IMG/VR virus record: IMGVR_UViG_3300012347_000308
Location: 1-25,463 of that record
Direction: 5' to 3' (one strand)
From: a virus
Taxonomy: Duplodnaviria; Caudoviricetes
DNA: 25,463 bases
Positions 10,705 to 25,416 of this stretch are shown here, piece after piece. The notes below the pieces were generated by a model that was given only the letters and a program-made list of their open reading frames with translations, was not told the DNA's origin and did not search any database. Position 1 is the first letter of the stretch, and each line of letters starts with the position of its first letter. The position numbers were made by a program, and so were the translations under genes.

Positions 10705-13077
10705 TTACAGTAGAGCCGGGATTAGCCCGGTATTTGGTTCGATTCTGGCCAGACTTGCGGTGATTGTCCCGCTGTTTGCGATGTAGGCTTTGCTTGGGTC
10801 CATCTGGATAGATCCAGAGGTTGGGGCGATTACCGTTGTCCCGTCGTCCCTGAAAAGATAACCTCCAAACACCTTGACGGGTGCTGTAAGTACGTTATCT
10901 AACCGCAAATCTACAACGCCAACATTTATTTGATAGTTCGCCGTGTCGGTGGCCGTCATGCCCTTAAAGAAGTTGCGAATTCCGTCCGCTGTCGTGATTT
11001 CATAGTGATACCACGCATAGAGGCGCTGTACGCTCGTTACCCCGTCAGGGTCGGATACATCTACCTGCACGTTGGGGTAGTCCGCTGTAAATTCCGTAAC
11101 CGTAGAGCCGTCAGTCGCGTTCGCGTTGTAAACGGTACAGGCGGCTTGCGCCACAGAAAACGCAATACCAGAACTGCCGAAAGTTCCAGAAGACTCGTAC
11201 TCGTCATAACAGGTGACGCCGTTTTGGTACGTCACGCGCAAACGATACGTTTTGTCTGCGGTGTACACCCCGTACCGAAAGAAAGACGTACCTGCGACAA
11301 TCTGGTTATCGGTTTCTAGCGAGTTTGTGACGTTGTAAATCTGAATCCGCGAACCGGCAACCAACCCGGACACCGCAACGCCCACGTTTACGCCCGTGGA
11401 GTCCGTGTACTTGGAAACCGCGATTGCGGCACCGTTGGCAAGAGTGATTGTGCCGGTCGTGGAAATGCTCGAAAACTTGGTTCCATTGGCCAGCGAAGCC
11501 GCTTTGATCGTGACAGTGGAACCCACCACAGCGAACGCGCTTGCGGCCGTTGCGTCAATGGTCAGATTGAACGCGCCAAGATTGATCTCTGTACCGTTAC
11601 CCGTGGCAACCTGCGTACCGAAAGAGGGATTGGCCGCTGCCAAGTTGTCAACTGTCCAGGACTTGCACCGGTCGTACAACTGATCGAGGTTGTCGATTGT
11701 TGCGTAGGCGTCGACCGTGGCCTTGTTGGTCTGGGTGACGTAGCTATCGGGTAGCCCAAGCAAAGAAACGTCTTGACTGGTGGCAAGCGCAAGGGGGGCC
11801 GTCGCTGGCTGATAGAGGTACGAAGTCGCGGAAACAGCATATGGCGCGTAGGTTGTCCCGCCTGCCGTGGCCCACGAATAATTCCCTGTGGCCTGCACCG
11901 TCATGTCGCGGTATCGCACCTGTTGTCTAGGCAAAAGCCCTGTGGTCACGGTCGAATCGTAGATAGTGGCTGGCACCACATCGCGCAAAACAAACCTGGT
12001 AGAATCGGTAATCAACGCGCCCGCCGCTGTGCGGTAGCTTGCGTTCACATACTGCGAGATTCGGAAGGTATTTGCGTAAGTGCCGTTGCCATTGTTGTAC
12101 AGGATCGCAAGCGAAGACCACTCGGAAATGACGATATTCTTGAGCGTGAGCATCTGCCCTGCGGTCGAGATGTTCGCAAACCGAACGCCTCGAGTCACGT
12201 TCGGACCTAGTGAAATGCCTTCAAGTTCCAACGTCATTGAGTCGGGCCAATAGTGGTACACCGCCTGCAAGCAGTTGGTGACGCGCACGTTTGCGATTGC
12301 GCCGAATGCGGCTTTTGCGTTGAATGGTCCGCTCGCCGACTGGTTGCCGTACACTTCCCAATCGTCAATGATTGACCGCGACCCCTGCATGCGGCCACCG
12401 ATTGAGCCGTCACAACGTGCGCCAATCATGCGGAAACGGATATTGTTGTCCGTGTGGAACCGCCAAAATGGAGCCGCACCGGTGAGCCATGCAATTGAAC
12501 CGTAAAACTCGAAATCCATCGATACGTTGGCCGTTGGGTTGAATCCGCTGGCCGCTGTTGCCGTATCCAAGAGCATACACCCGTTGTACACGTTGCCGTA
12601 TTGGTCAACATCACCAAGCCGTAGCGCGCACCTGTCCGACGCAGTTGCCGCTGTCGTGGTCAGATTGGTACTTACTAAGTCGATTCTGGCGTTGCGGAGG
12701 TAGACGAACGCCCCGGTGTTAAACGTGGTCGCGCCGACAAAGCGAATCGAGTTTGTGAGAGGGTCGAGGATGATACTTGTCCCGTCCGCAATGTCTGCGG
12801 CACCGGAAGAGATCGAGAACCCGTCGCCGGGCGCGGGGTCAACGTCGGGCAATGCGGCCATTGTTGCGCGGGTGTAGGTGTTTGCGAAAGGGAATTCGAT
12901 TGTCACCTGCGTGGCGGAAACGTAGGCAGTGATGCGCCTTGTCTGCCCAACGCCTGCGCCCGTGGTCAAACGAATGCACCGACCTACCCACCCGGCCACG
13001 GCACCGCCAGAAACGACAATGGTCGTGCCTGTTGCGCTGGTGATGGTACCGACTGCGTATGCTGTGAGCGCGGCCAT
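10705..13077 (-). CDS. Large beta-rich virion/tail-associated protein (790 aa)
   Basis: T/A/G/V-rich; LTTGAGVGQTRRITAY N-terminal module; lies between the gp10-like and ejection genes. Confidence 0.65.
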   Translation of the reverse strand: MAALTAYAVGTITSATGTTIVVSGGAVAGWVGRCIRLTTGAGVGQTRRITAYVSATQVTIEFPFANTYTRATMAALPDVDPAPGDGFSISSGAADIADGTSIILDPLTNSIRFVGATTFNTGAFVYLRNARIDLVSTNLTTTAATASDRCALRLGDVDQYGNVYNGCMLLDTATAASGFNPTANVSMDFEFYGSIAWLTGAAPFWRFHTDNNIRFRMIGARCDGSIGGRMQGSRSIIDDWEVYGNQSASGPFNAKAAFGAIANVRVTNCLQAVYHYWPDSMTLELEGISLGPNVTRGVRFANISTAGQMLTLKNIVISEWSSLAILYNNGNGTYANTFRISQYVNASYRTAAGALITDSTRFVLRDVVPATIYDSTVTTGLLPRQQVRYRDMTVQATGNYSWATAGGTTYAPYAVSATSYLYQPATAPLALATSQDVSLLGLPDSYVTQTNKATVDAYATIDNLDQLYDRCKSWTVDNLAAANPSFGTQVATGNGTEINLGAFNLTIDATAASAFAVVGSTVTIKAASLANGTKFSSISTTGTITLANGAAIAVSKYTDSTGVNVGVAVSGLVAGSRIQIYNVTNSLETDNQIVAGTSFFRYGVYTADKTYRLRVTYQNGVTCYDEYESSGTFGSSGIAFSVAQAACTVYNANATDGSTVTEFTADYPNVQVDVSDPDGVTSVQRLYAWYHYEITTADGIRNFFKGMTATDTANYQINVGVVDLRLDNVLTAPVKVFGGYLFRDDGTTVIAPTSGSIQMDPSKAYIANSGTITASLARIEPNTGLIPALL

Positions 13078-13520
13078 TAGAACTCCGTCTGCGTGATGCT
13101 AGTGAGCAATCCGCCTGTGTAGTGCAGATCCTTGCGGGTCGTTGCTCCGTCATGGACGTAATCAATGCGATCCAGTCGGGTACCTGTGTATGTGAATACC
13201 TTGTACCATCCGCCTGCGTAGTCAATGCGGGTCACGAGGTCGCCTGTGCGCGTGATTACCGGGTCGGTTGGTGGTAGTGGTGCATCCTGTCCAGGTGGAC
13301 CTTGCGGACCTGTCAACCCGATCGGACCTTGCGGGCCTGTTGGACCAACTGGACCAGTTGGCCCGGCTGGGCCTTGTGGACCGGGAGGACCAACCGCGCC
13401 ACCGGACACCGTACCGAGTAGGGTAGTCAAGTCCATGAAGTACCGACGCCACGGAAGCGAAAGCGTGCGGTTGTCTTCGACCGCTGGAGTACTCAATGGG
13501 GCTGGGTACATCCCGCTCAT
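13077..13520 (-). CDS. Collagen-repeat virion protein at the tail-needle position (147 aa)
   Basis: [10 protein letters not shown]-terminal helix, 12 Gly-X-Y triplets, C-terminal YTG/RIDY beta repeats. Confidence 0.75.
13284..13391 (-). repeat. Collagen-like (Gly-X-Y)12 coding repeat
   Basis: [36 protein letters not shown]. Confidence 0.9.
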
Positions 13521-15867: not shown

Positions 15868-17163
15868 CTAGTAAACTCGGACCAATCCTTCCGGGATTAC
15901 TACCGCCGCACCAATCATGCACTGAATCGCGTGAATCTTGGTGAAGGTATACGGGTCGTGGCTCTCGATGATCGCGATGTTGATGCCGTTCACTTCTTCC
16001 TGCGCGCTGTAGTCCAAACCGGTAGGGAGGTTGAACTTTGGCGAGATGCCCACGATTGCATTCTTTGCGAACACAAGGCCGGGGGTGCTGGAAGCGGTGG
16101 AGTTGAGGAACGTCACTGTCGCACCCGAGCTAATGCCAGCGGTCACGTTCTGGTAAGGGCCAGAGGAAACCAAGCACTCGGACAAGGTGAGCGTGCAAGC
16201 GGTACCGGAAACGGTGGTGTGGGACACCACAACGAACGTGGCGGTGATGCCAGTATCGATCTTGAGGTCTGGGTTCACGAAACGTACAGGTGTACCTGCG
16301 TTCGAGAACGACACAAGGCGACCGACGAGGCCAGTCGAAGACCCGTTCAATCCAGCGGTCAGTCCGGTGATTGCCACGGTGAACGTGGGCGTCCACACGG
16401 TACCGCCGGCTTGTGCGGCAGTGGTGGTAACACCAGACTGCGCGGCCAAAGCGGGGTCAGTTGGGAGCAATGGGGTACGGAAGAAATCAAGACCAGAGTA
16501 TTCACCCATCAAACCCTGCGTGTAGAGCTTATCAATGCTCCGACCGGGATTGAACAATGCCTGCTGGCTGGTCTGCAAGGTCACGCCAACGGCCTCGGGG
16601 GTCAGTGCAACGCGAGGATCTTCGGGGGCCAGTCCACGGTTATTCAAGACGCCTGCGGCAATGGCGTACTGGGTCAATGGAGTCGCCGAGTAGGAACCGG
16701 GAGTGCCTACCACTTGACCAGAGCCAAGCAACGCAAGGGAACCGATGTACTGGTCAACCAATCGACGCAAGCGGCGAACGGCGGGTTTGATTACGCGCTC
16801 GTTGGCCTGCTCGGAACTCATGTTCACGGCCAATTCGTCAAGCGAACGGTTTAGGTTGACGGTGAACTTCTGCGAGACGGTCAGCTGGATGGTTGCGTCT
16901 TGAATCGCAGTGTAGGTAGGCGCCGAAGGGATTGGCGCGGGGGTGACGGTGCTCGAAGCATCGTACAAGCCAGCGTTGAAAGCGGTTTGGGTCACATCCA
17001 CCATCGTAGGACGGCGAAGAACAACGGTCGCGCCGGTGTTTTCCTGTGCGGAAATCATATCGTTGCGGAACTCGATGTTCTGGGAGATCTTGCCAGTCTG
17101 CGAGAACTGGAAGAAGATCTCTTTGGAAACTTTATTCTGAACCCTAGAAAGGTTATTGGCCAT
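15868..17163 (-). CDS. Major capsid protein, P22 gp5-like (431 aa)
   Basis: TGATVVLRRP, ERVIKPAVRRL...VD, GLMGEYSGLDF, GLVFAKNAI; size and synteny. Confidence 0.88.
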   Translation of the reverse strand: MANNLSRVQNKVSKEIFFQFSQTGKISQNIEFRNDMISAQENTGATVVLRRPTMVDVTQTAFNAGLYDASSTVTPAPIPSAPTYTAIQDATIQLTVSQKFTVNLNRSLDELAVNMSSEQANERVIKPAVRRLRRLVDQYIGSLALLGSGQVVGTPGSYSATPLTQYAIAAGVLNNRGLAPEDPRVALTPEAVGVTLQTSQQALFNPGRSIDKLYTQGLMGEYSGLDFFRTPLLPTDPALAAQSGVTTTAAQAGGTVWTPTFTVAITGLTAGLNGSSTGLVGRLVSFSNAGTPVRFVNPDLKIDTGITATFVVVSHTTVSGTACTLTLSECLVSSGPYQNVTAGISSGATVTFLNSTASSTPGLVFAKNAIVGISPKFNLPTGLDYSAQEEVNGINIAIIESHDPYTFTKIHAIQCMIGAAVVIPEGLVRVY

Positions 17164-17286
17164 TGTTGCACGCTCCGTGTTTGGTACTTGGTCGAATTGA
17201 TCGAGGCTTGTACCTGGGAGTCGTGCGGCCTCTTTGCACGTCCAGTGAGTCGCAGTATTACGCGATGCGAAGCGCGATTGTCAAGT

Positions 17287-17315
17287 ATAATACTCAATTT
17301 TCTCAAAATAGGCAA
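17287..17315 (-). promoter_or_regulatory. Sigma70-like promoter upstream of the coat gene
   Basis: TTGCCT-17 nt-TATTAT; a perfect TTGACA (17279-84) follows but has a poor -10. Confidence 0.5.
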
Positions 17316-17316
17316 C

Positions 17317-17340
17317 AAAAAAGCCACCTTTTCGGGTGGC
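17317..17340 (-). terminator. Rho-independent terminator after the scaffold gene
   Basis: GCCACC-CGAAAA-GGTGGC-TTTTTT. Confidence 0.75.
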
Positions 17341-17362
17341 CTTCGGTGCGAATCGCCTTAAA

Positions 17363-18301
17363 TCACCATGCCGACCCGCCTTTTGCGCGGTATGCGGCGT
17401 ATTCCTTGGGGTTCATGTCCTCCGGAGCCTTGCGCCCGCCTCGTGCATTGTCCACGGTCGCGGGGATGCGGACCGATGGTTTGGGCGCGGGGGTGAACGC
17501 TGGCTTGGGTGGAATCACCGGCGCGGACTGCTTGGGCTTGCCGTTGATCTCCGCCATTGCGGAAAGCTTGGCGATAGTCTTCATCGCGCGGGCTGGACCT
17601 TGCATGAGGGAGCGCAAGAGGTCTTCGTCTTCCGCAAGCGCGGCGATGATTGCGGGGCCGTTCTCATCTTCGGCGATGGACTCGATTACTGAGGGGTGGA
17701 CGTACTGTTGATTCTGTTGCAACACAGCAACAACGTATTCCTCCTTCGCGCTGATCTCCGGGTCGATCTTGGCGTGCTCGGTGATGCGCTGGGTGTAGCT
17801 CTCAATTGTGCGCTGTCGTTGCGCCTGTGCGGTGCGCTCGGCTTCTTCGGCGCGGAACATATCGCGAGCTTCACGGATCGCCTGCTCCTTGGTGGCCTTG
17901 GTCAAGTCCTTGAGGTACCGATCAACGTCTGGCTCACCGGTTGCGGTGACGTAGGCCGACAGGTCTAGCTCGGTCGGGTCGGTAACGGCTTCCGCTTGCT
18001 TCTTGGCGCTCTCGTACTCCGCTAGACGTGCCTCCAACTCTGCGGCACGCTGGGCCAACACTCGACGCTCGGAATTGACTTCCGCGAATCGTCCGTAGGG
18101 GATGGATTCGGGAGGCGTGTTTTTCTTCTGCCAAGGTTTCGGCTCGGCGGGCTTATCGTCCACCGGTGCAACTTCTTCGTCATCGTCTTCCTCTCCCTTT
18201 GGCGTGGGTGTGGCTTCGCCTCGCTGTTCTGCGATGCGCTGGGCGTTGTAGTCGGCTTGCGACTCCTCAACGTCAATCTGGTCTTCCGTTTCGTCTACCA
18301 T
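17363..18301 (-). CDS. Capsid scaffolding protein
   Basis: Acidic N-terminus, IPYGRFAEVN, coiled coils, Pro-rich linker, C-terminal EDMNPKEYAAYR; lies between portal and coat. Confidence 0.8.
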   Translation of the reverse strand: MVDETEDQIDVEESQADYNAQRIAEQRGEATPTPKGEEDDDEEVAPVDDKPAEPKPWQKKNTPPESIPYGRFAEVNSERRVLAQRAAELEARLAEYESAKKQAEAVTDPTELDLSAYVTATGEPDVDRYLKDLTKATKEQAIREARDMFRAEEAERTAQAQRQRTIESYTQRITEHAKIDPEISAKEEYVVAVLQQNQQYVHPSVIESIAEDENGPAIIAALAEDEDLLRSLMQGPARAMKTIAKLSAMAEINGKPKQSAPVIPPKPAFTPAPKPSVRIPATVDNARGGRKAPEDMNPKEYAAYRAKGGSAW

Positions 18302-20326
18302 TTATTCGAGTCCTTGCAAAAGGGATTGGATATTTGCTTGGTTCGCGGCTTGGGCTTGCGCCCGTTCGCGCGCATCGTCTCGGGCGTGATTGAGGCCCAA
18401 CAACTCCGCTTCGTGGGTCCGCTGTGAGCGTGCTTTTGCCTCGTCTCGCGTGTGCTGGTCGTGGCTGTCTGCGTCGCGCATCATCGTCTTGGCTGTCAAA
18501 TCTACTTGCTGGGAGTCCTTCTCGTGCGCAATTTTCATTTCTGTCATTTGCCGTTGCGCCTCGAGTTCCATTTGCTTCATTTGCATCTGGGTCTGCGCCT
18601 TGACCTTTTCGGCGTTGCCCTCTTGGAGCGCCTGTTGCATCTGCTGTAGTTGCGCTTGCATCTGCTGGATCTGTTGCGACTGCATGCGCACCGTGTTCAT
18701 CGGATCCTCTTGTGCCGAGAGGATCTGCTGGACGTTTGGCGGCAACATGGAGATCAACGCATCTGCGACGGATTCGGAACCGGGAAGGTCGATCGACTGC
18801 AAGAGCCAAGGGCCGATGATGGCCGCGCTTGCCGGGTTCATCTTCATAAAGTCCATCATACGGCTTTGCAACTCTTCGCGCTGGCTTGCGTAGGCTGGGC
18901 CGCTGGACACGGTCACACCGTACTTGCCGTAAGACAGATCGAGGTTTGCCACTTCGGGAAGCTGGGTTGGCCCAACGCTCACCGATTCGGTTTTCCCGTC
19001 TGGATGGATGGCAACGCGCACCGCATCGTCGATCCACGTCTTTGGCATGATGTCGATAAGGATCTCGCCGCACCGTTTGATTCCGTACCGTAGGGAGTCG
19101 AGGAAATGGAACGTGCTCACAGCGCCTTGAGCCTGCTCGTACTTGAGTGCCTTGCCGCTCGAAGCGTCGACGTGTTCGCCGGTGCTTGGCGCGTAGATGC
19201 CGGTAATCATCTTCATGACCTGCACGTTCGCGTCTGCCAACTGCATGTATCCGACTGGTGGTTCTGCGGGCGGGATCAACGTAAGTTCGGTGCCCTTCTT
19301 CTTGAACAGCATGACTTTAGCGACCCGGTTCGCGGTCGCCCAGTCGTCCATGTGGTTCTCGACGCTATTTTCCTCGGCAATGGCCATCGCTTTAGGGTGG
19401 TTGGCGATGCTTGCGATTGCTTCCGACTTGAGGTAGTTGTACTCCCGTTGCACGCTCGCAATGTCGCGCACAAGGCCGTGGAAGTGCAAGCGCCCTTCGC
19501 GGAATCCACGCTCGCCGGTGACGGTGACGAATGGGAGGATCGAGCCGGGGTACTCGTCGTTTACATCAAGCAGACAATCGTCGGTGAAGACATATTGAAT
19601 GATCTTTCCGCCTTCTTCCCGCGCCCATAGCTCCGAAACAAGAACCTCGTCGTTCTCGTCCTTCGCGGTCTTGAGTTCTTCGGCGTACTTCTCCCACATC
19701 TCACATGCGGCGTCCACGTTGAGCATCTTCTCGTAGACCACGAAACGGGCGTCGCTGAAATCTGGGCGGCGTGCGGCTGGATCCCAAAGTACGGTCGTTG
19801 GGTCGGCGATCGAGTCGATGCGTAGGCCAATGCTCTGGTCGTCCCGCTCAAACATATTGACGCGCCAAGAGCCGATCCCGCCCTTTACTGCGCACTCGAG
19901 CGCATAGGTGTACGCGCTTGCGGCGTTGCTCTCGTACTCGATGCCTGCGATAAGGCCAGACAACGCCTTGGCCGCTTCCTTGGTTGCTCCATCGCCTACC
20001 GGGTGGATATTGACGCTTGGCGGCGCTTGGCGTGCCGTATTGGTTACCGTGCGGGTAAATGCGGGAATTAGGTTGTAGACGAAGCTTGGGCGGCCTGCGG
20101 CTTTGCGGGTCTGAATGTCGCTTCCGCTCCACTGCTCACCGAACGCGAACTCGGTGTTCTCCCGGCTATCCTCCATGATTGGCGTCCAGTGATCGTTGGC
20201 CCGGTCGCGCATCTTCTTGAGTTCGGGCAGTTCCTTGACCCGCTTGACCTGTGGCGCTTCCTCGACGTGGGATTTGTGGTCCTCGTCGCGGTCCATCGGC
20301 GTGACGCCTTCCGAATAGTCTTCCAT
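18302..20326 (-). CDS. Portal protein, P22-like
   Basis: GEQW...RPSFVYNLI, GGIGSWRV, DPAARRPDFSDARF, GLVRDI...QREYNY, SSGKAL; Gln-rich C-terminal barrel. Confidence 0.92.
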   Translation of the reverse strand: MEDYSEGVTPMDRDEDHKSHVEEAPQVKRVKELPELKKMRDRANDHWTPIMEDSRENTEFAFGEQWSGSDIQTRKAAGRPSFVYNLIPAFTRTVTNTARQAPPSVNIHPVGDGATKEAAKALSGLIAGIEYESNAASAYTYALECAVKGGIGSWRVNMFERDDQSIGLRIDSIADPTTVLWDPAARRPDFSDARFVVYEKMLNVDAACEMWEKYAEELKTAKDENDEVLVSELWAREEGGKIIQYVFTDDCLLDVNDEYPGSILPFVTVTGERGFREGRLHFHGLVRDIASVQREYNYLKSEAIASIANHPKAMAIAEENSVENHMDDWATANRVAKVMLFKKKGTELTLIPPAEPPVGYMQLADANVQVMKMITGIYAPSTGEHVDASSGKALKYEQAQGAVSTFHFLDSLRYGIKRCGEILIDIMPKTWIDDAVRVAIHPDGKTESVSVGPTQLPEVANLDLSYGKYGVTVSSGPAYASQREELQSRMMDFMKMNPASAAIIGPWLLQSIDLPGSESVADALISMLPPNVQQILSAQEDPMNTVRMQSQQIQQMQAQLQQMQQALQEGNAEKVKAQTQMQMKQMELEAQRQMTEMKIAHEKDSQQVDLTAKTMMRDADSHDQHTRDEAKARSQRTHEAELLGLNHARDDARERAQAQAANQANIQSLLQGLE

Positions 20327-20329
20327 GCG

Positions 20330-21571
20330 TTATACTCCAACCATCATATTGTTGAACGACTTGTGCGCCATTTTGCGCCGTATTTCTGCTTGCATCCAAT
20401 ATCTAAAACTATCGCACATATCCGAGTAGGTATCGTGCAATGGATCGCCGAATAGACCTGTGCGGTCGTCAAACTTGCGGCGATACTTGCGTAATGACTC
20501 CACCAGCGTTACCGCGCCCTTGTCGATCCACACTTTCGGGAAGTGCTCTTTTACAAAGCTTATGTCGTACTCGATTGACTGCGTTCGCGGTAAGATCTCA
20601 ACGCGCACTCCACGGAATGCGCCCTCAATGATTTCTTCCGGTGAACGTCCGGTTTGCAGGCTTCGGTTTGCCGCATCGTGTGGTAACACAATGTGGTCGA
20701 TCCTGTACGGTAACCCCTTGAGGTGGTCGATGTAGTGCGATAAAGGCACGCCAAACGACTCGTAAGCATGCAGGACTCGGCGCTCTTGGCCGATCCACTG
20801 CCCCACAATGAGTGAGGTGTGGTCACCGATTCCAAGGTCAAACGAAACGATTGTGTCGGCGCTCTGCTCGTATCCAATCGAACATATCCGCCCACTATCG
20901 ACCATCGCGCCCATCTCCGCCTCGTAGATCGCGCCCTCTGCTGTTGGACGGCAATGCCCACCCCAGATCCATGCCGCACGCGCTGGGTCTTTGAGGTAGG
21001 ATCGCTCCATCTCTTCGAGCAGTTCTTTGGGCGCCCAAGGGTTTTCTTTGATGTTGACGCGAGTGAGCAGGACGTTTTCGTCCGTGTTCGCGACGAAACG
21101 GTCATAAACCGGATCGGTTTCAAGTTCTGGATTGAAACTCCACCAAAGCTCCGAACCCGGCTTGCGGATCGTTGGGATCAATACGTCCATCGAGTGTTGC
21201 GAAACGCTTTGCGCTTCCTCAACCCAAGCGATGTCTACGCCCTCGGTACTTTTCAGCCCGGCCATCACCTCGGAGCGAAGGCCCGAAAAGAGAATGATTG
21301 TGCCGTTTTTGCCGCGAATCTCCGTCTCGAGAACCTGATAGAACGCATTGAGGCCCATTGAATTGATCTTGTCATTCAATAGGCGATGCACCGAATCTTT
21401 GATGCTCTTCTGAACTTCGCGGGTGCACAAAATCCGAATTGGCCGCTGTACGCCCATGATGAGCAAGATGGATGCGATGGTGTGCGACTTCGCGCCACCT
21501 CGTCCGCCGTAAGCGACCTTGAATCGCTTTGGCTCAAACCATGTACGCGACCATTTCGGGAGTTCTGTCAT
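20330..21571 (-). CDS. terL: Terminase large subunit (PBSX-like)
   Basis: Walker A YGGRGGAKS, Walker B AWVEEA, SFNP, nuclease DLG and HD..SD.CDSFRY. Confidence 0.96.
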   Translation of the reverse strand: MTELPKWSRTWFEPKRFKVAYGGRGGAKSHTIASILLIMGVQRPIRILCTREVQKSIKDSVHRLLNDKINSMGLNAFYQVLETEIRGKNGTIILFSGLRSEVMAGLKSTEGVDIAWVEEAQSVSQHSMDVLIPTIRKPGSELWWSFNPELETDPVYDRFVANTDENVLLTRVNIKENPWAPKELLEEMERSYLKDPARAAWIWGGHCRPTAEGAIYEAEMGAMVDSGRICSIGYEQSADTIVSFDLGIGDHTSLIVGQWIGQERRVLHAYESFGVPLSHYIDHLKGLPYRIDHIVLPHDAANRSLQTGRSPEEIIEGAFRGVRVEILPRTQSIEYDISFVKEHFPKVWIDKGAVTLVESLRKYRRKFDDRTGLFGDPLHDTYSDMCDSFRYWMQAEIRRKMAHKSFNNMMVGV

Positions 21572-21879
21572 TCGACGAATTTAACCGTGATCTGGTTTTC
21601 CATCGGCCCACCGTCTGGCCCGGACATTTCCACCTGCTGTTTCGCCTGCCCGTCTACGTTGTCGATGCACAGCTTGATCGCGTTGAGGTCGCCTTGTGCG
21701 GCGATCTGAAACAGTTTTTGCGAGAGGAATTGGCCCTTGGTGATTATTGCATCTGGCTCACCATTTTTGCCGGGGATTGTGATCGTATCTGCCATCGATG
21801 CACGCAAGCAAGCCCGAATAGAGTTTTCTTTTTTCGGGCCGCCTTTTGGGTTTCCAGACTTTCCTTTTACGAATGGCAT
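21568..21879 (-). CDS. terS: Terminase small subunit-like protein (DUF5681-type N-terminus)
   Basis: FVKGKSGNPKGGPK, GDLNAIK...DG, VEMSGPDGGP; overlaps the terL start. Confidence 0.8.
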   Translation of the reverse strand: MPFVKGKSGNPKGGPKKENSIRACLRASMADTITIPGKNGEPDAIITKGQFLSQKLFQIAAQGDLNAIKLCIDNVDGQAKQQVEMSGPDGGPMENQITVKFVE

Positions 21880-21904: not shown

Positions 21905-22042
21905 TCAAAATGGCAAGTCATCTTTCGGCGTGTATTGCGCCTTGGATGCTCTTGATTTTGCGGCGTTTGCCTTGAGTACGCTGTCTAGGTTGCGTGGTGC
22001 GTTTTCGCCTTCGCGCCCGTTTCCGTCTGATCCACTAGCCAT
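21905..22042 (-). CDS. 45-aa peptide with SSB-like C-terminal tail DDLPF
   Basis: Not in the ORF track. GGAGG RBS; MASGSDGNGREGENAPRNLDSVLKANAAKSRASKAQYTPKDDLPF*. Confidence 0.7.
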   Translation of the reverse strand: MASGSDGNGREGENAPRNLDSVLKANAAKSRASKAQYTPKDDLPF

Positions 22043-22754
22043 TGATTTTCCTCCAAAGTTTGTTTGCGCGCACTTCTTTTTTGATCGTCGAGTACTCCTG
22101 CAATATAGCTTCCGAATACTCTAGGTGGAAATCGTGCAAATCGGGGTTTTCCTCTATGCTGAATTGCTCGAGGCTTCGGCTTGATCGTAGGTTTGCGCTT
22201 CCGTGGATGACGATCTTCGCACCTCCTACTGTCTCGATGAGCACCGTTTTGCAGTGCGTCCCTGCTACTGCAAGCTGAAAATCGCACTTTGCGTCTTCGT
22301 GGTCTAATGCCTCGTAGATGTACGGGATCAATGCTTGGCGCTCATGCGCGTAGAAATATGCGCTCACAATGAGGTCGAGCTTGTCGCAGTATCCCAGGTC
22401 GCACACATCTTTTAGTGCTTCGATGCACTCTTGGGACATTGAGAGCGTGGAAATCACCATGCGCTTTGCTTTGATGTTGTTGTCCATCAAAAATGAGCGT
22501 ATGAAGTGCGAGAAAATGAAGTTGTCCGAAATTACGGAGTGAACGCGCATTCCTCGCTCTGGCTTAATCTGCTTAACGAGGTCACTTGCGTATTCCGCCT
22601 TGACCATGCGTTGTTGCACTGGCTGGTGGTATCGCGGTTTGATGTATCGTGTTTCGAGTTCGGGCGCTTCGAAATTCAAATCCATGTCGAATGCGTCTGC
22701 GCCAAAGTCGGGAAGGTCGAAACCGATGTCTGGCAAGTCCAGTGCGAGATCCAT
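22035..22754 (-). CDS. Phospholipase D-fold (single HKD-like) protein, putative nuclease
   Basis: HCKTVLIE...IHGSANLRSS..LEQ; acidic low-complexity N-terminus; TGATG-coupled start. Confidence 0.75.
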   Translation of the reverse strand: MDLALDLPDIGFDLPDFGADAFDMDLNFEAPELETRYIKPRYHQPVQQRMVKAEYASDLVKQIKPERGMRVHSVISDNFIFSHFIRSFLMDNNIKAKRMVISTLSMSQECIEALKDVCDLGYCDKLDLIVSAYFYAHERQALIPYIYEALDHEDAKCDFQLAVAGTHCKTVLIETVGGAKIVIHGSANLRSSRSLEQFSIEENPDLHDFHLEYSEAILQEYSTIKKEVRANKLWRKING

Positions 22755-22804
22755 CACGCACCCATCAAAATCAGGATGATAACGATTAGCAGGAACACTA
22801 TCAT
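22754..22804 (-). CDS. 16-aa hydrophobic peptide
   Basis: MIVFLLIVIILILMGA*, with start/stop overlaps on both sides. Confidence 0.4.
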   Translation of the reverse strand: MIVFLLIVIILILMGA

Positions 22805-23631: not shown

Positions 23632-23768
23632 TTGTGGTTTGCGCGCACTACCATTAGCGCAAAAACCACAATTGAGGTGAATACCCTTGTTAGGCAGACG
23701 GCTTCGCCGCAGGATGCAAGAACAAATCATTTTGCCTAACATCGTCTTCACCCTCAATTTGCGGTTTG
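23632..23768 (+). repeat. Circularly permuted attC-like element flanked by 10-bp direct repeats
   Basis: Right arm (GGTGAAT-ACCCTT-GTTAGGC, ending 23695) precedes left arm (GCCTAAC-ATCGT-CTTCACCC, from 23734); TTG(T/C)GGTTTG at 23632-41 and 23759-68. Confidence 0.7.
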
Positions 23769-24388
23769 AACAAATTCCCTTGCGCGGTATGCCTTGCAAG
23801 GCGCTCCTGCATCGCGGCAAAATAGTCAGCGTCCAATTCCGAAGCAACGAGGTCAAACCCAAGGTCATGGCAAGCAATGGCAATGCTACCAGATCCAAGG
23901 TGAGTGTCAAGTATAAGGTCGCCTGGCTTCGCATAGTTGGAAAGAAGCCAACGATATAAGGCAACAGGCTTTTGCGTTGGGTGTATTCTTTCGTTATCAG
24001 CACCAATAAAACCATCATATCGAATTGGTGCCTTTTTTATAACATTAAGAAAATTAGTCCAAGCAAGCTCACCATCAGAAAAAGAAAGATTTTTATCGCG
24101 CTGTTTATCCCAAAAAATCCAACCGCCAACAGAAGGTAAATGGAAATAATTTCCACCCCAAACGATTTGATATTTTGAAACGCGACTCAATTCAAAGAAA
24201 TAATCAGATTTAGGTACAAAAGAATCCCAACTTTTTGATTTATCCCAAAGTTGGTTTTTCCCTTTCCCCATTTTCATTTCGCTTGCACCAATCCCATACG
24301 GCGGATCAACAATAGCCAAATCAAAATGCTTATCAGGATACTGACGCATCAGATCCATGCAATCCATGTTTCGCAAATCAAGCATCAT
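23690..24388 (-). CDS. DNA amino-methyltransferase, beta class (probably N6-adenine)
   Basis: DPPY (motif IV) precedes HPTQKPVALY and ILDTHLGSGS (motif I); start at ATG 24388 or 24385 after AAAGGA; the stop lies in the GTTA core box. Confidence 0.92.
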   Translation of the reverse strand: MMLDLRNMDCMDLMRQYPDKHFDLAIVDPPYGIGASEMKMGKGKNQLWDKSKSWDSFVPKSDYFFELSRVSKYQIVWGGNYFHLPSVGGWIFWDKQRDKNLSFSDGELAWTNFLNVIKKAPIRYDGFIGADNERIHPTQKPVALYRWLLSNYAKPGDLILDTHLGSGSIAIACHDLGFDLVASELDADYFAAMQERLARHTAQGNLFKPQIEGEDDVRQNDLFLHPAAKPSA

Positions 24389-24409
24389 ATTCCTTTCAAG
24401 TTTTAGGTT

Positions 24410-24487
24410 GCCTAACAACCCCATTCCACCCGCATCGCGCCTGTTGTTATGCCGTGAGCGCGAGCAGGTGAATAGGGGAGGTTAGGT
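24410..24487 (+). repeat. attC-like site 1 (78 bp)
   Basis: GCCTAAC-6-ATTCCACC...GGTGAAT-7-GTTAGGT; imperfect palindrome with an extra C and an extra A in the left arm. Confidence 0.85.
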
Positions 24488-24664
24488 GGACGCCTCCGGC
24501 GCGGGATTAGCTCTTTCGCAAAAAATATCAAAGCATTTATCAGAGCAAGAAGACATCAAGGCATGCCCAAAGAAAAAACTTTTAGTGTCATCTCCAATTG
24601 TTGCACCACAAATTGCGCAAGGTGCGTGCATTAGGTTATCAAAAATCTTGATACTTGATTTCAT
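24482..24664 (-). CDS. Cys-rich small protein (CxxC...CxxxC), cassette-borne
   Basis: AAAGGAG RBS; TAA stop inside the attC core box. Confidence 0.7.
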   Translation of the reverse strand: MKSSIKIFDNLMHAPCAICGATIGDDTKSFFFGHALMSSCSDKCFDIFCERANPAPEAST

Positions 24665-24821
24665 ACCGAACTCCTTTGTACACTTCAGTAGATTGTTTTG
24701 GTGCTATCAATTTTGTAGTCCCTGTATGCTTCCCATTCTTGAAGAATATAGATATATTTTTATCTACTATATTCGTTATCAAGAAATAGTCAGTTCCTGT
24801 TATTCTTGTTTTTTGTATCAC
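24639..24821 (-). CDS. Hypothetical protein, cassette-borne
   Basis: Fills the gap between its neighbours; GTG start with weak RBS. Confidence 0.4.
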   Translation of the reverse strand: MIQKTRITGTDYFLITNIVDKNISIFFKNGKHTGTTKLIAPKQSTEVYKGVRYEIKYQDF

Positions 24822-24832
24822 TTAATCACCAT

Positions 24833-25018
24833 TCATCTAGAGGAAAAGTGGTGTATCGCTATTATTTTATTTGCAAATACAAAAGAATTATCAACATCAT
24901 CATAATTGTTTTCTTTAATGAAATTATCGGCATCATCTTCATCATCAAAAGAATGAAGATATGCTTTGTCATTTATATATGAACCAGATACACCTTTAAT
25001 CTTCAATACAAAAACCAT
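24833..25018 (-). CDS. Small acidic hypothetical protein, cassette-borne
   Basis: AGGGG RBS before ATG 25018; FDDEDDADNFI. Confidence 0.6.
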   Translation of the reverse strand: MVFVLKIKGVSGSYINDKAYLHSFDDEDDADNFIKENNYDDVDNSFVFANKIIAIHHFSSR

Positions 25019-25053
25019 ATACACACCCCTGCGTTAATGTTTTAACTCAATTC

Positions 25054-25112
25054 ACCTAACGTCCCCATTCCACCCACATGCTACGCAGTGGGTGAATATG
25101 GCGGGGTTAGGG
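25054..25112 (+). repeat. attC-like site 2 (59 bp)
   Basis: ACCTAAC-6-ATTCCACC-CACATGC-TAC-GCAGTG-GGTGAAT-8-GTTAGGG. Confidence 0.85.
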
Positions 25113-25124
25113 GCATCTGCGAGG

Positions 25125-25307
25125 CTATTGTTCGTTATTTTCAAGTTCACAAGTGTCTGGGATCTCAAAATTGCCGTTGAAATCTCTAACAAGGATTTTC
25201 TTGCGGTCATTGCAGTGAGCGTAAGGATATGTGTCCGTGTCCAATGAATCCGTAAAGAATGGACATTTATCACAGCGATGTACTACGATTGCGACTTTCT
25301 TTGCCAT
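25125..25307 (-). CDS. Small four-Cys phage protein, cassette-borne (60 aa)
   Basis: AAAGGA RBS; CDKCPF...C...IPDTCEL. Confidence 0.75.
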   Translation of the reverse strand: MAKKVAIVVHRCDKCPFFTDSLDTDTYPYAHCNDRKKILVRDFNGNFEIPDTCELENNEQ

Positions 25308-25338
25308 CTCGTTCCTTTCTGTTATTGGTTTTAATCAT

Positions 25339-25416
25339 CCCTAACATCCGCATCCCACCCACATCCCGCCTGTTTTGATACCGTGCGCGGGAGTGGGTGA
25401 ATAGCGTTGGTTAGGC
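25339..25416 (+). repeat. attC-like site 3 (78 bp)
   Basis: CCCTAAC-6-ATCCCACC-CACATCCCGC...GCGGGAGTG-GGTGAAT-7-GTTAGGC; loop similar to site 1. Confidence 0.85.

Follow-up and report, generated by a model that had tools for sequence, protein, structure and literature searches.

Introduction

Cassette genes are regarded as having a single set orientation relative to their attC site, the one that allows them to be expressed from Pc. Cassettes facing the promoter are unobserved in mobile and chromosomal integrons according to the relevant passages of Nivina 2016 (PMC5027507), and the origin of cassettes is considered an open question (PMC8618304). Clusters of attC sites without intI have been described in virulent phages, with methylases as cargo, and IntI1 recombines such sites, the bottom strand above the top strand (Qi 2023, PMC9892861). 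In the freely accessible texts covered here, we found no description of systematically reversed phage cassettes, and such cassettes go unmentioned in the covered parts of PMC8876359, PMC1382264 and PMC5371416. Phage attC clusters are already known, and what sets the locus described here apart from canonical cassettes is the reversal of its genes relative to attC polarity. We consider it probable that the locus represents a phage-resident, integron-type array, which would use ordinary IntI chemistry while holding its genes in reverse.

Results and Discussion

A P22-like phage record with a terminal attC cluster

The window analyzed is the whole of the linear virus record IMGVR_UViG_3300012347_000308 (25,463 nt), estimated to be 71% complete. 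The contig is a P22-like phage in which the terminase, P22-like portal, coat, scaffold and endolysin genes all lie on the minus strand, as do the cassette genes, and its terminase matches those of Pseudomonas phages at 45% (Table 1). The final 1.8 kb of the contig is AT-rich and contains the array. There are three attC sites within 1 kb, and no integrase was found in the contig; a CALIN is defined by at least two attC in 3 kb with no integron integrase close by. By sequence and fold the sites are attC-shaped, and the array is a CALIN. A viral-contig search with the terminase returned no relative and hence no empty-site allele of this phage, no cultured phage carrying the same array was found, and host clues from the Atlas were uninformative. 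Elsewhere in the record, an ORF of 240 aa (22035-22757, minus strand), located upstream of the terminases, has weak PHROG matches (endonuclease, E 3e-4), and a tail-region protein (13077-13520, minus strand) carries collagen-like Gly-X-Y repeats.

Table 1. Features of the array and of the phage backbone in record 3300012347_000308.
Feature	Position	Strand	Remarks
Phage backbone: coat, scaffold, portal, large terminase	15868..21879	-	Gene list, Pfam, PHROG
DUF5681 protein, probable small terminase	within 15868..21879	-	Pfam/PHROG
attI-like terminal site	23633..23695	+	Hairpin; 12-nt motif 23663-23674; L box 23676-23682; R core
Orphan N6/N4 DNA methyltransferase	23690..24424	-	Stop is TAA of R'; SD-led start probably 24388
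ORF-less mini-cassette, about 36 nt, GNA mini-hairpin tail	23696..23733	+	Translated as methylase C-terminal extension
Degenerate attC in methylase 3' end	23734..23770	+	R'' and L'' recognizable, R' lost; CM 8.8 bits
attC1	24410..24487	+ top, - recombining (predicted)	78 nt; crossover G24481/T24482
60-aa ORF with Cys pairs	24482..24664	-	Stop in attC1 R'; shared tail at end
139-aa open frame	24486..24905	+	Gene list; probably shadow ORF
60-aa ORF	24639..24821	-	Open frame only, otherwise unsupported
Acidic orphan ORF, 61-63 aa, first gene behind attC2	24833..25024	-	Database gene call
attC2	25054..25112	+	59 nt; GTA loop on minus; crossover G25106/T25107
60-aa ORF with SD	25125..25307	-	Database gene call
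attC3	25339..25416	+	78 nt; crossover G25410/T25411
3' end of next cassette, shared tail, cut by contig end	25411..25463	-	Sequence

Structure and polarity of the attC sites

R''/R' cores (RYYYAAC, GTTRRRY) with paired L boxes are present in attC1-3; TAAC and GTT are exact in all three, with deviations in some outer core letters, and 98% of L-stem cells are paired in a 20-site alignment. The lengths fall inside the range of 57-141 nt given for attC, and attC3 shares 80% identity with attC1 across 94 nt, tail included. The attC pattern matched three times in the contig against none in 100 shuffles, and an Rfam search gave no match. Unpaired spacers measure 6/7, 6/8 and 6/7 nt, compared with 5/6 in aadA1 under identical counting and an attC criterion of 5-6 per arm. 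Both strands of every site fold as hairpins, the minus strand more stably each time (minus/plus -21.8/-19.9, -16.2/-15.5 and -19.6/-18.8 kcal/mol for attC1-3; z -3.0 to -5.2) and with A-rich loops.

Folding and pattern both bear out the original observation that the left arm of the + strand carries an unpaired C (bracketed in ATT(C)CACC and ATC(C)CACC) plus an unpaired A, and the folds likewise place the extrahelical G and T, 6 or 7 bp apart depending on the choice of bulged G, and the GTA loop of the second site on the minus strand. The canonical rule to which this polarity was referred also holds: in the aadA1 cassette of plasmid R100, our polarity control, the left arm of the coding strand has the same extra C and A, the published bottom strand of aadA7 carries the G and T bulges, and the recombinogenic strand is by definition the bulged bottom strand in Nivina 2016 (PMC5027507). 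As the bulges of attC1-3 match those of aadA1/aadA7, the + strand is the top strand. From the R' breakpoints described below and the published PH101 assay, we infer that IntI would recombine attC1-3 as the folded minus strand.

Genes and stops in the array

The methylase (PF01555, E 8.6e-16; phrog_67, E 3e-44) has thousands of homologues, and the ORF with Cys pairs has one, P0128, which shares 55% identity and lacks the tail. Neither Pfam, PHROG nor NCBIfam matched the ORF at 24639..24821, for which an exact look-up was also empty; the ORF at 24833..25024 found no relative among 1.84 billion representatives, and that at 25125..25307 none by sequence, its closest ESM Atlas clusters being viral hypothetical proteins (score 0.95). 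The 139-aa plus-strand frame had no PHROG match and is absent from database gene calls. That the minus strand codes for every ORF, as had been claimed, is thus correct for the credible ORFs but not to the letter, given this frame.

Stops in R' had been noted at 23690, 24482 and 25411. The first two truly end the methylase and the 60-aa ORF with Cys pairs, whereas the TAA at 25411 closes an open frame of only 16 codons to the contig end and is a putative gene stop. At the second site the ORF at 25125..25307 ends at TAG 25125, six codons short of the in-frame R' TAA (25107). Within each unit of the array the hairpin comes first, then a ribosome-binding site and one or more genes, and the last stop falls in or close to the core that follows; the canonical order is instead a top-strand ORF followed by its own attC.

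The end of the methylase gene is itself composite. A near-identical copy of the mini-cassette module occurs in L246 and another behind an unrelated gene in L322, and the peptide tail that it encodes is the same in 11 homologous methylase clusters among the matches listed. The degenerate attC and the terminal site together make up an inside-out inverted repeat, and analogous sites without R' occur in L326 and L057. The C-terminal extension (23690-23800) and several homologues end in QxxLF-like motifs, which we take to resemble sliding-clamp binding motifs. Within the gene, the middle (23990-24290) has diverged from L246:300-620 while both ends are highly similar DNA, and a contig from run X1 is alike; the diverged part is probably the target-recognition region, which suggests, as far as the alignment goes, that specificity is swapped inside the methylase cassette.

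A probable attI-like site at the end of the array

The TAA at 23690 does sit in an R' core, as originally noted, but that core belongs to a terminal half-site and not to a full attC. Its crossover lies between G23689 and T23690, it folds without a closing R'' arm, and it consists of R, a 5-6 nt spacer and an attC-like L box. The 12-nt motif beside it also marks the end of reversed arrays in three further phages, at four sites in all (L326 twice, L023/L328 and L322/L329). In those phages the L box repeats R in inverted form at a distance of 5 nt, and the layout of these terminal sites matches that of the Shewanella attI quoted in Qi 2023 (PMC9892861). The half-site at 23689 is presumably the primary attI-like site. 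Its 12-nt motif is also found in the long hairpin sites of L331/L332, and a decayed attC is a possible alternative identity. In another phage contig, L032, a Cro gene is followed first by reversed cassettes and then by an attI-like core, behind which lies an 83-aa 5' fragment of intI (L032:3077-3328; NCBIfam E 8e-20), co-oriented with the cassette genes. This order puts attI at the promoter-distal end in normal platform geometry. A search for Pc returned eight promoter-like matches against 5.1 +/- 2.3 in shuffles.

Several observations accompany these sites. One phage holds two separate reversed arrays (L326:60-640 and 2010-2480), each closed by the same terminal site, and a gene of tandem 72-nt repeats lies upstream of the array in L023/L334 (2570-3111). 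The AT-rich phages L331 (7001-7135) and L332 (5800-9500) have hairpin sites of about 130 nt with an asymmetric spacer, densely arrayed in L332, and there the terminal 12-nt motif is on the non-coding strand. Other matches to the attI-like pattern (L342, L344 and L347-349) were dropped as chance, with no attC nearby, as was a match in L327.

Cassette boundaries lie at the R' crossover

The methylase cassette has a homologue in L246 with 67% protein identity. Homology between the two covers the upstream site, where L246 has a homologue of attC1, the leader and the gene, and stops between AA and C just past the stop codon: at this 3' crossover 17 of 30 positions are identical before and 3 of 30 after. 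For a cassette common to L023 and L246, identity is lost at this position too (28/30 before, 13/30 after). Contrary to our preferred reading, the methylase cassette has a blurred 5' boundary (16/30 before, 21/30 after), which is explained by the relatedness of the tails. At 19 family junctions, the stretches of 20 nt that follow the R' core resemble one another (likeness 23.4) more than do bacterial flanks (13.1), other viral flanks (14.2) or shuffled sequence (13.1). Judged from these alignments, the exchange unit appears to be a hairpin followed by its gene, which is the arrangement expected of a reversed gene if the bottom strand recombines at R'.

Two alternatives bear on these boundaries. 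If a recombinase of inverted specificity folded the + strand and cut R'', the cassettes would be functionally canonical and the bulge rule alone would differ; changes to bulge, spacer or loop can indeed shift strand choice (Nivina 2016, PMC5027507), and the spacers of these sites exceed those of aadA1 by 1-2 nt. Such an enzyme is very improbable, however, as the methylase shares its upstream and not its downstream site with L246, with identity continuing unbroken across the upstream R'' and on into the leader, bacterial members of this L-box family are canonical among the matches listed, the minus strand folds more stably and with A-rich loops, and PH101 bottom strands won the published assay (Qi 2023, PMC9892861).

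The hairpins could instead be former attC sites that have ceased to recombine site-specifically. They would persist as intergenic structures in RNA or DNA, and would provide anchors of homology between which phage recombinases swap genes. Similar attC precede unrelated genes in L329 and in this phage, and in a contig from run X3 attC2 has other flanks on both sides, a pattern that could also arise by homologous recombination. Ample homology is available in the related sites and in the 20-nt tails that cassettes have in common (23.4 against 13.1 in bacterial flanks), one site has lost R' and become fused to the methylase, the methylase middle has been swapped between conserved ends, so that internal recombination does occur here, and the records searched contain no integrase. 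We nevertheless hold this account to be unlikely: attC1-3 all retain their R and L boxes, the two bulges and a paired stem, identity drops between AA and C in three of the four relevant comparisons, and a conserved attI-like end would be needless. Four DNA sequencing runs covered the array in part and gave no clean excision joint, a joint of 25102 to 25324 having ambiguous letters between, and metagenome scans, with 0 and 2 loci (L324 examined), were uninformative.

Reversal accompanies the phage setting

Viral and bacterial collections were scanned with near-identical L-box patterns, and sites were kept if R' was present and the fold reached -10 kcal/mol or below, leaving 37 sites from at least 120 viral loci and 96 from at least 123 bacterial loci; several viral loci are near-duplicates, and the counts overstate independence. 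Among the matches listed, the gene to the left of the site was on the top strand at 79 of 96 bacterial sites (8 bottom, 9 uncalled), whereas by ORF length it was on the bottom strand at 20 of 37 viral sites (14 top, 3 uncalled). A Shine-Dalgarno (SD) sequence with a start was found on the bottom strand only at 24/37 viral sites and on the top strand at none, compared with 5/96 bottom-only, 18 top-only and 1 both in bacteria, again among the matches listed (Fisher P 7e-9, near-duplicate viral loci included). For 27 viral sites among the matches listed, Pfam matched 9 of 54 flanking candidates on the bottom strand (Dam, Mom, Tad2-like, HNH and N6/N4 methylase families) and 0 of 48 on the top strand. 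An in-frame stop in R' occurred at 14/37 viral and 9/96 bacterial sites and a stop in R'' at 4/37 and 37/96, respectively, among the matches listed. Against reversal, the long ORFs surrounding the site were mostly bottom-strand in only 19 of 27 viral loci, and by ORF length alone 14 of the 37 viral sites look canonical, both among the matches listed. The SD and Pfam measures, which are cleaner, nonetheless agree with reversal at viral sites, and the bacterial counts of gene and SD strand point the other way, which ties reversal to the phage setting and not to the site family. The original suggestion of a distinct cassette class is thereby supported: the reversed layout is dominant in viral and rare in bacterial members, and its boundaries lie at the R' crossover. 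A few bacterial contigs (L243, L180, L177 and L181) carry apparently reversed cassettes, L243 being closely like the viral L064; possibly these are prophage or misbinned phage DNA.

Integrase, transcription and replication

No PF00589 match to an integron integrase was found in the 71%-complete contig, where phage genes follow the terminal site and no intI lies beside it, as it would in a complete integron. Five further records yielded no full integrase. Two results count against our preferred reading: no integrase was found in ten related records, two of them complete, and in a search for a host integron the family model scored no higher than 33 bits at any of 50 bacterial loci and had hits in 0 of 5 genomes.

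Under the phage-resident array that we favor, a host integron integrase would act in trans, folding the minus strand, and host IntI is the presumed enzyme. Phage transcription would read through the array toward the terminase genes, which would put the landing point of new cassettes at the promoter-distal end; expression by phage read-through, part of the original proposal, is plausible from the co-orientation of the genes and their internal Shine-Dalgarno sites. The cargo, an orphan methylase and small proteins, may be of use to the phage, for instance in countering host restriction. Once inserted at a bacterial attI, the cassettes would face Pc and be silent, an antisense placement that had been predicted and that follows from the published rules of IntI strand choice (PMC5027507), and this silence would keep the phage-side pool separate.

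Phage replication might instead set the polarity, by leaving the minus strand exposed as single-stranded DNA or by shielding it, with gene direction following transcription independently. Folding of attC requires single-stranded DNA (PMC5027507; PMC5371416), and the viral bias in the SD control is strong among the matches listed. The contig, however, holds no replication genes or origin, its GC skew profile shows no clear origin, and canonical phage arrays such as that of TJE1 exist. As the sole explanation replication polarity seems distinctly unlikely, although it is compatible with a phage-resident array, as its cause.

A possible route from gene to cassette

Tails common to unrelated cassettes, together with the tail-less free homologue P0128 of the 60-aa ORF, point to genes captured into a ready-made shell. 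They also support a model that casts phages as cassette factories, in which a phage gene abutting the attI-like site would be turned into a cassette by insertion of a near-empty attC cassette at a secondary GTT, immediately upstream of the ribosome-binding site of that gene. Such an insertion would account for the reversed gene, the stop in R', the internal SD and the tail in common, and would leave a relic GTT at 9-16 nt from R''. A relic GTT is present at 11 of 13 family sites, the window having been picked after seeing them; in 29 independent viral flanks it occurred 8 times against 4.1 expected (P 0.04), and it was not above ordinary phage genes (P 0.2). The relic therefore fits capture by insertion but is weak in independent data, and we rate the cassette-factory model as rather unlikely. 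It does offer a concrete and testable route from an ordinary gene to a cassette.

More broadly, reversed cassettes suggest bacterial gene-shuffling chemistry in a layout suited to phage transcription. If this is true, phages keep a cassette pool of their own, rich in methylases and other counter-defence genes and shuffled by the same enzyme that bacteria use for stocking anti-phage genes. The cultured phage PH101, whose sites have already been assayed, appears to share the reversed layout.

Comparison with known systems

Among described systems, the phage CALINs of Qi 2023 (PMC9892861) are of the same kind as the array in 3300012347_000308: a tailed phage, an attC cluster, no intI and N6/N4 methylase cargo. 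In PH101 the strand that was cloned as bottom in that study carries the annotated ORFs, which are SD-led, so that its genes are bottom-strand like those here, whereas the text of Qi 2023 calls TJE1 and PH101 typical and leaves antisense genes unmentioned; the PH101 cluster (KR534323 75536-77987; L351:25536-27987) contains attC2 twice, with nearly identical leaders. By our mapping of the sites given in Qi 2023, TJE1 cassettes are canonical, which makes this phage a counter-example. The array here also has a putative attI-like end, and none is described for virulent phages in the text of that source.

Insertion in the wrong orientation through the top strand (Nivina 2016, PMC5027507) likewise leaves the gene facing the attI side, but as described in that source the event flips gene and site together, whereas here site polarity toward the attI-like end is normal and the gene alone is reversed. 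IntI also inserts cassettes outside integrons, at SALINs/attG (bioRxiv 10.1101/2022.09.11.507474), a possible route by which attC could enter phage DNA; the cassettes described there are canonical and in bacterial genomes, and this route alone gives no reversed arrays of phage genes.

With the class 1 cassettes aadA1/aadA7 and with chromosomal integrons of the ATTCCACC/GGTGAAT L-box type, which are mostly from Betaproteobacteria among the matches listed, the array shares R and L boxes, bulges opposite AAC and sites of 59-78 nt, and with classical integrons it also shares a crossover between G and TT and closure by what is probably an attI-type site. It differs from classical integrons in that intI is missing, and Pc apparently so, from the presumed attI end and in the shared tails past the crossover, and from classical cassettes in its bottom-strand genes, in a site that precedes its gene and in a stop that lies in R' and not in R''.
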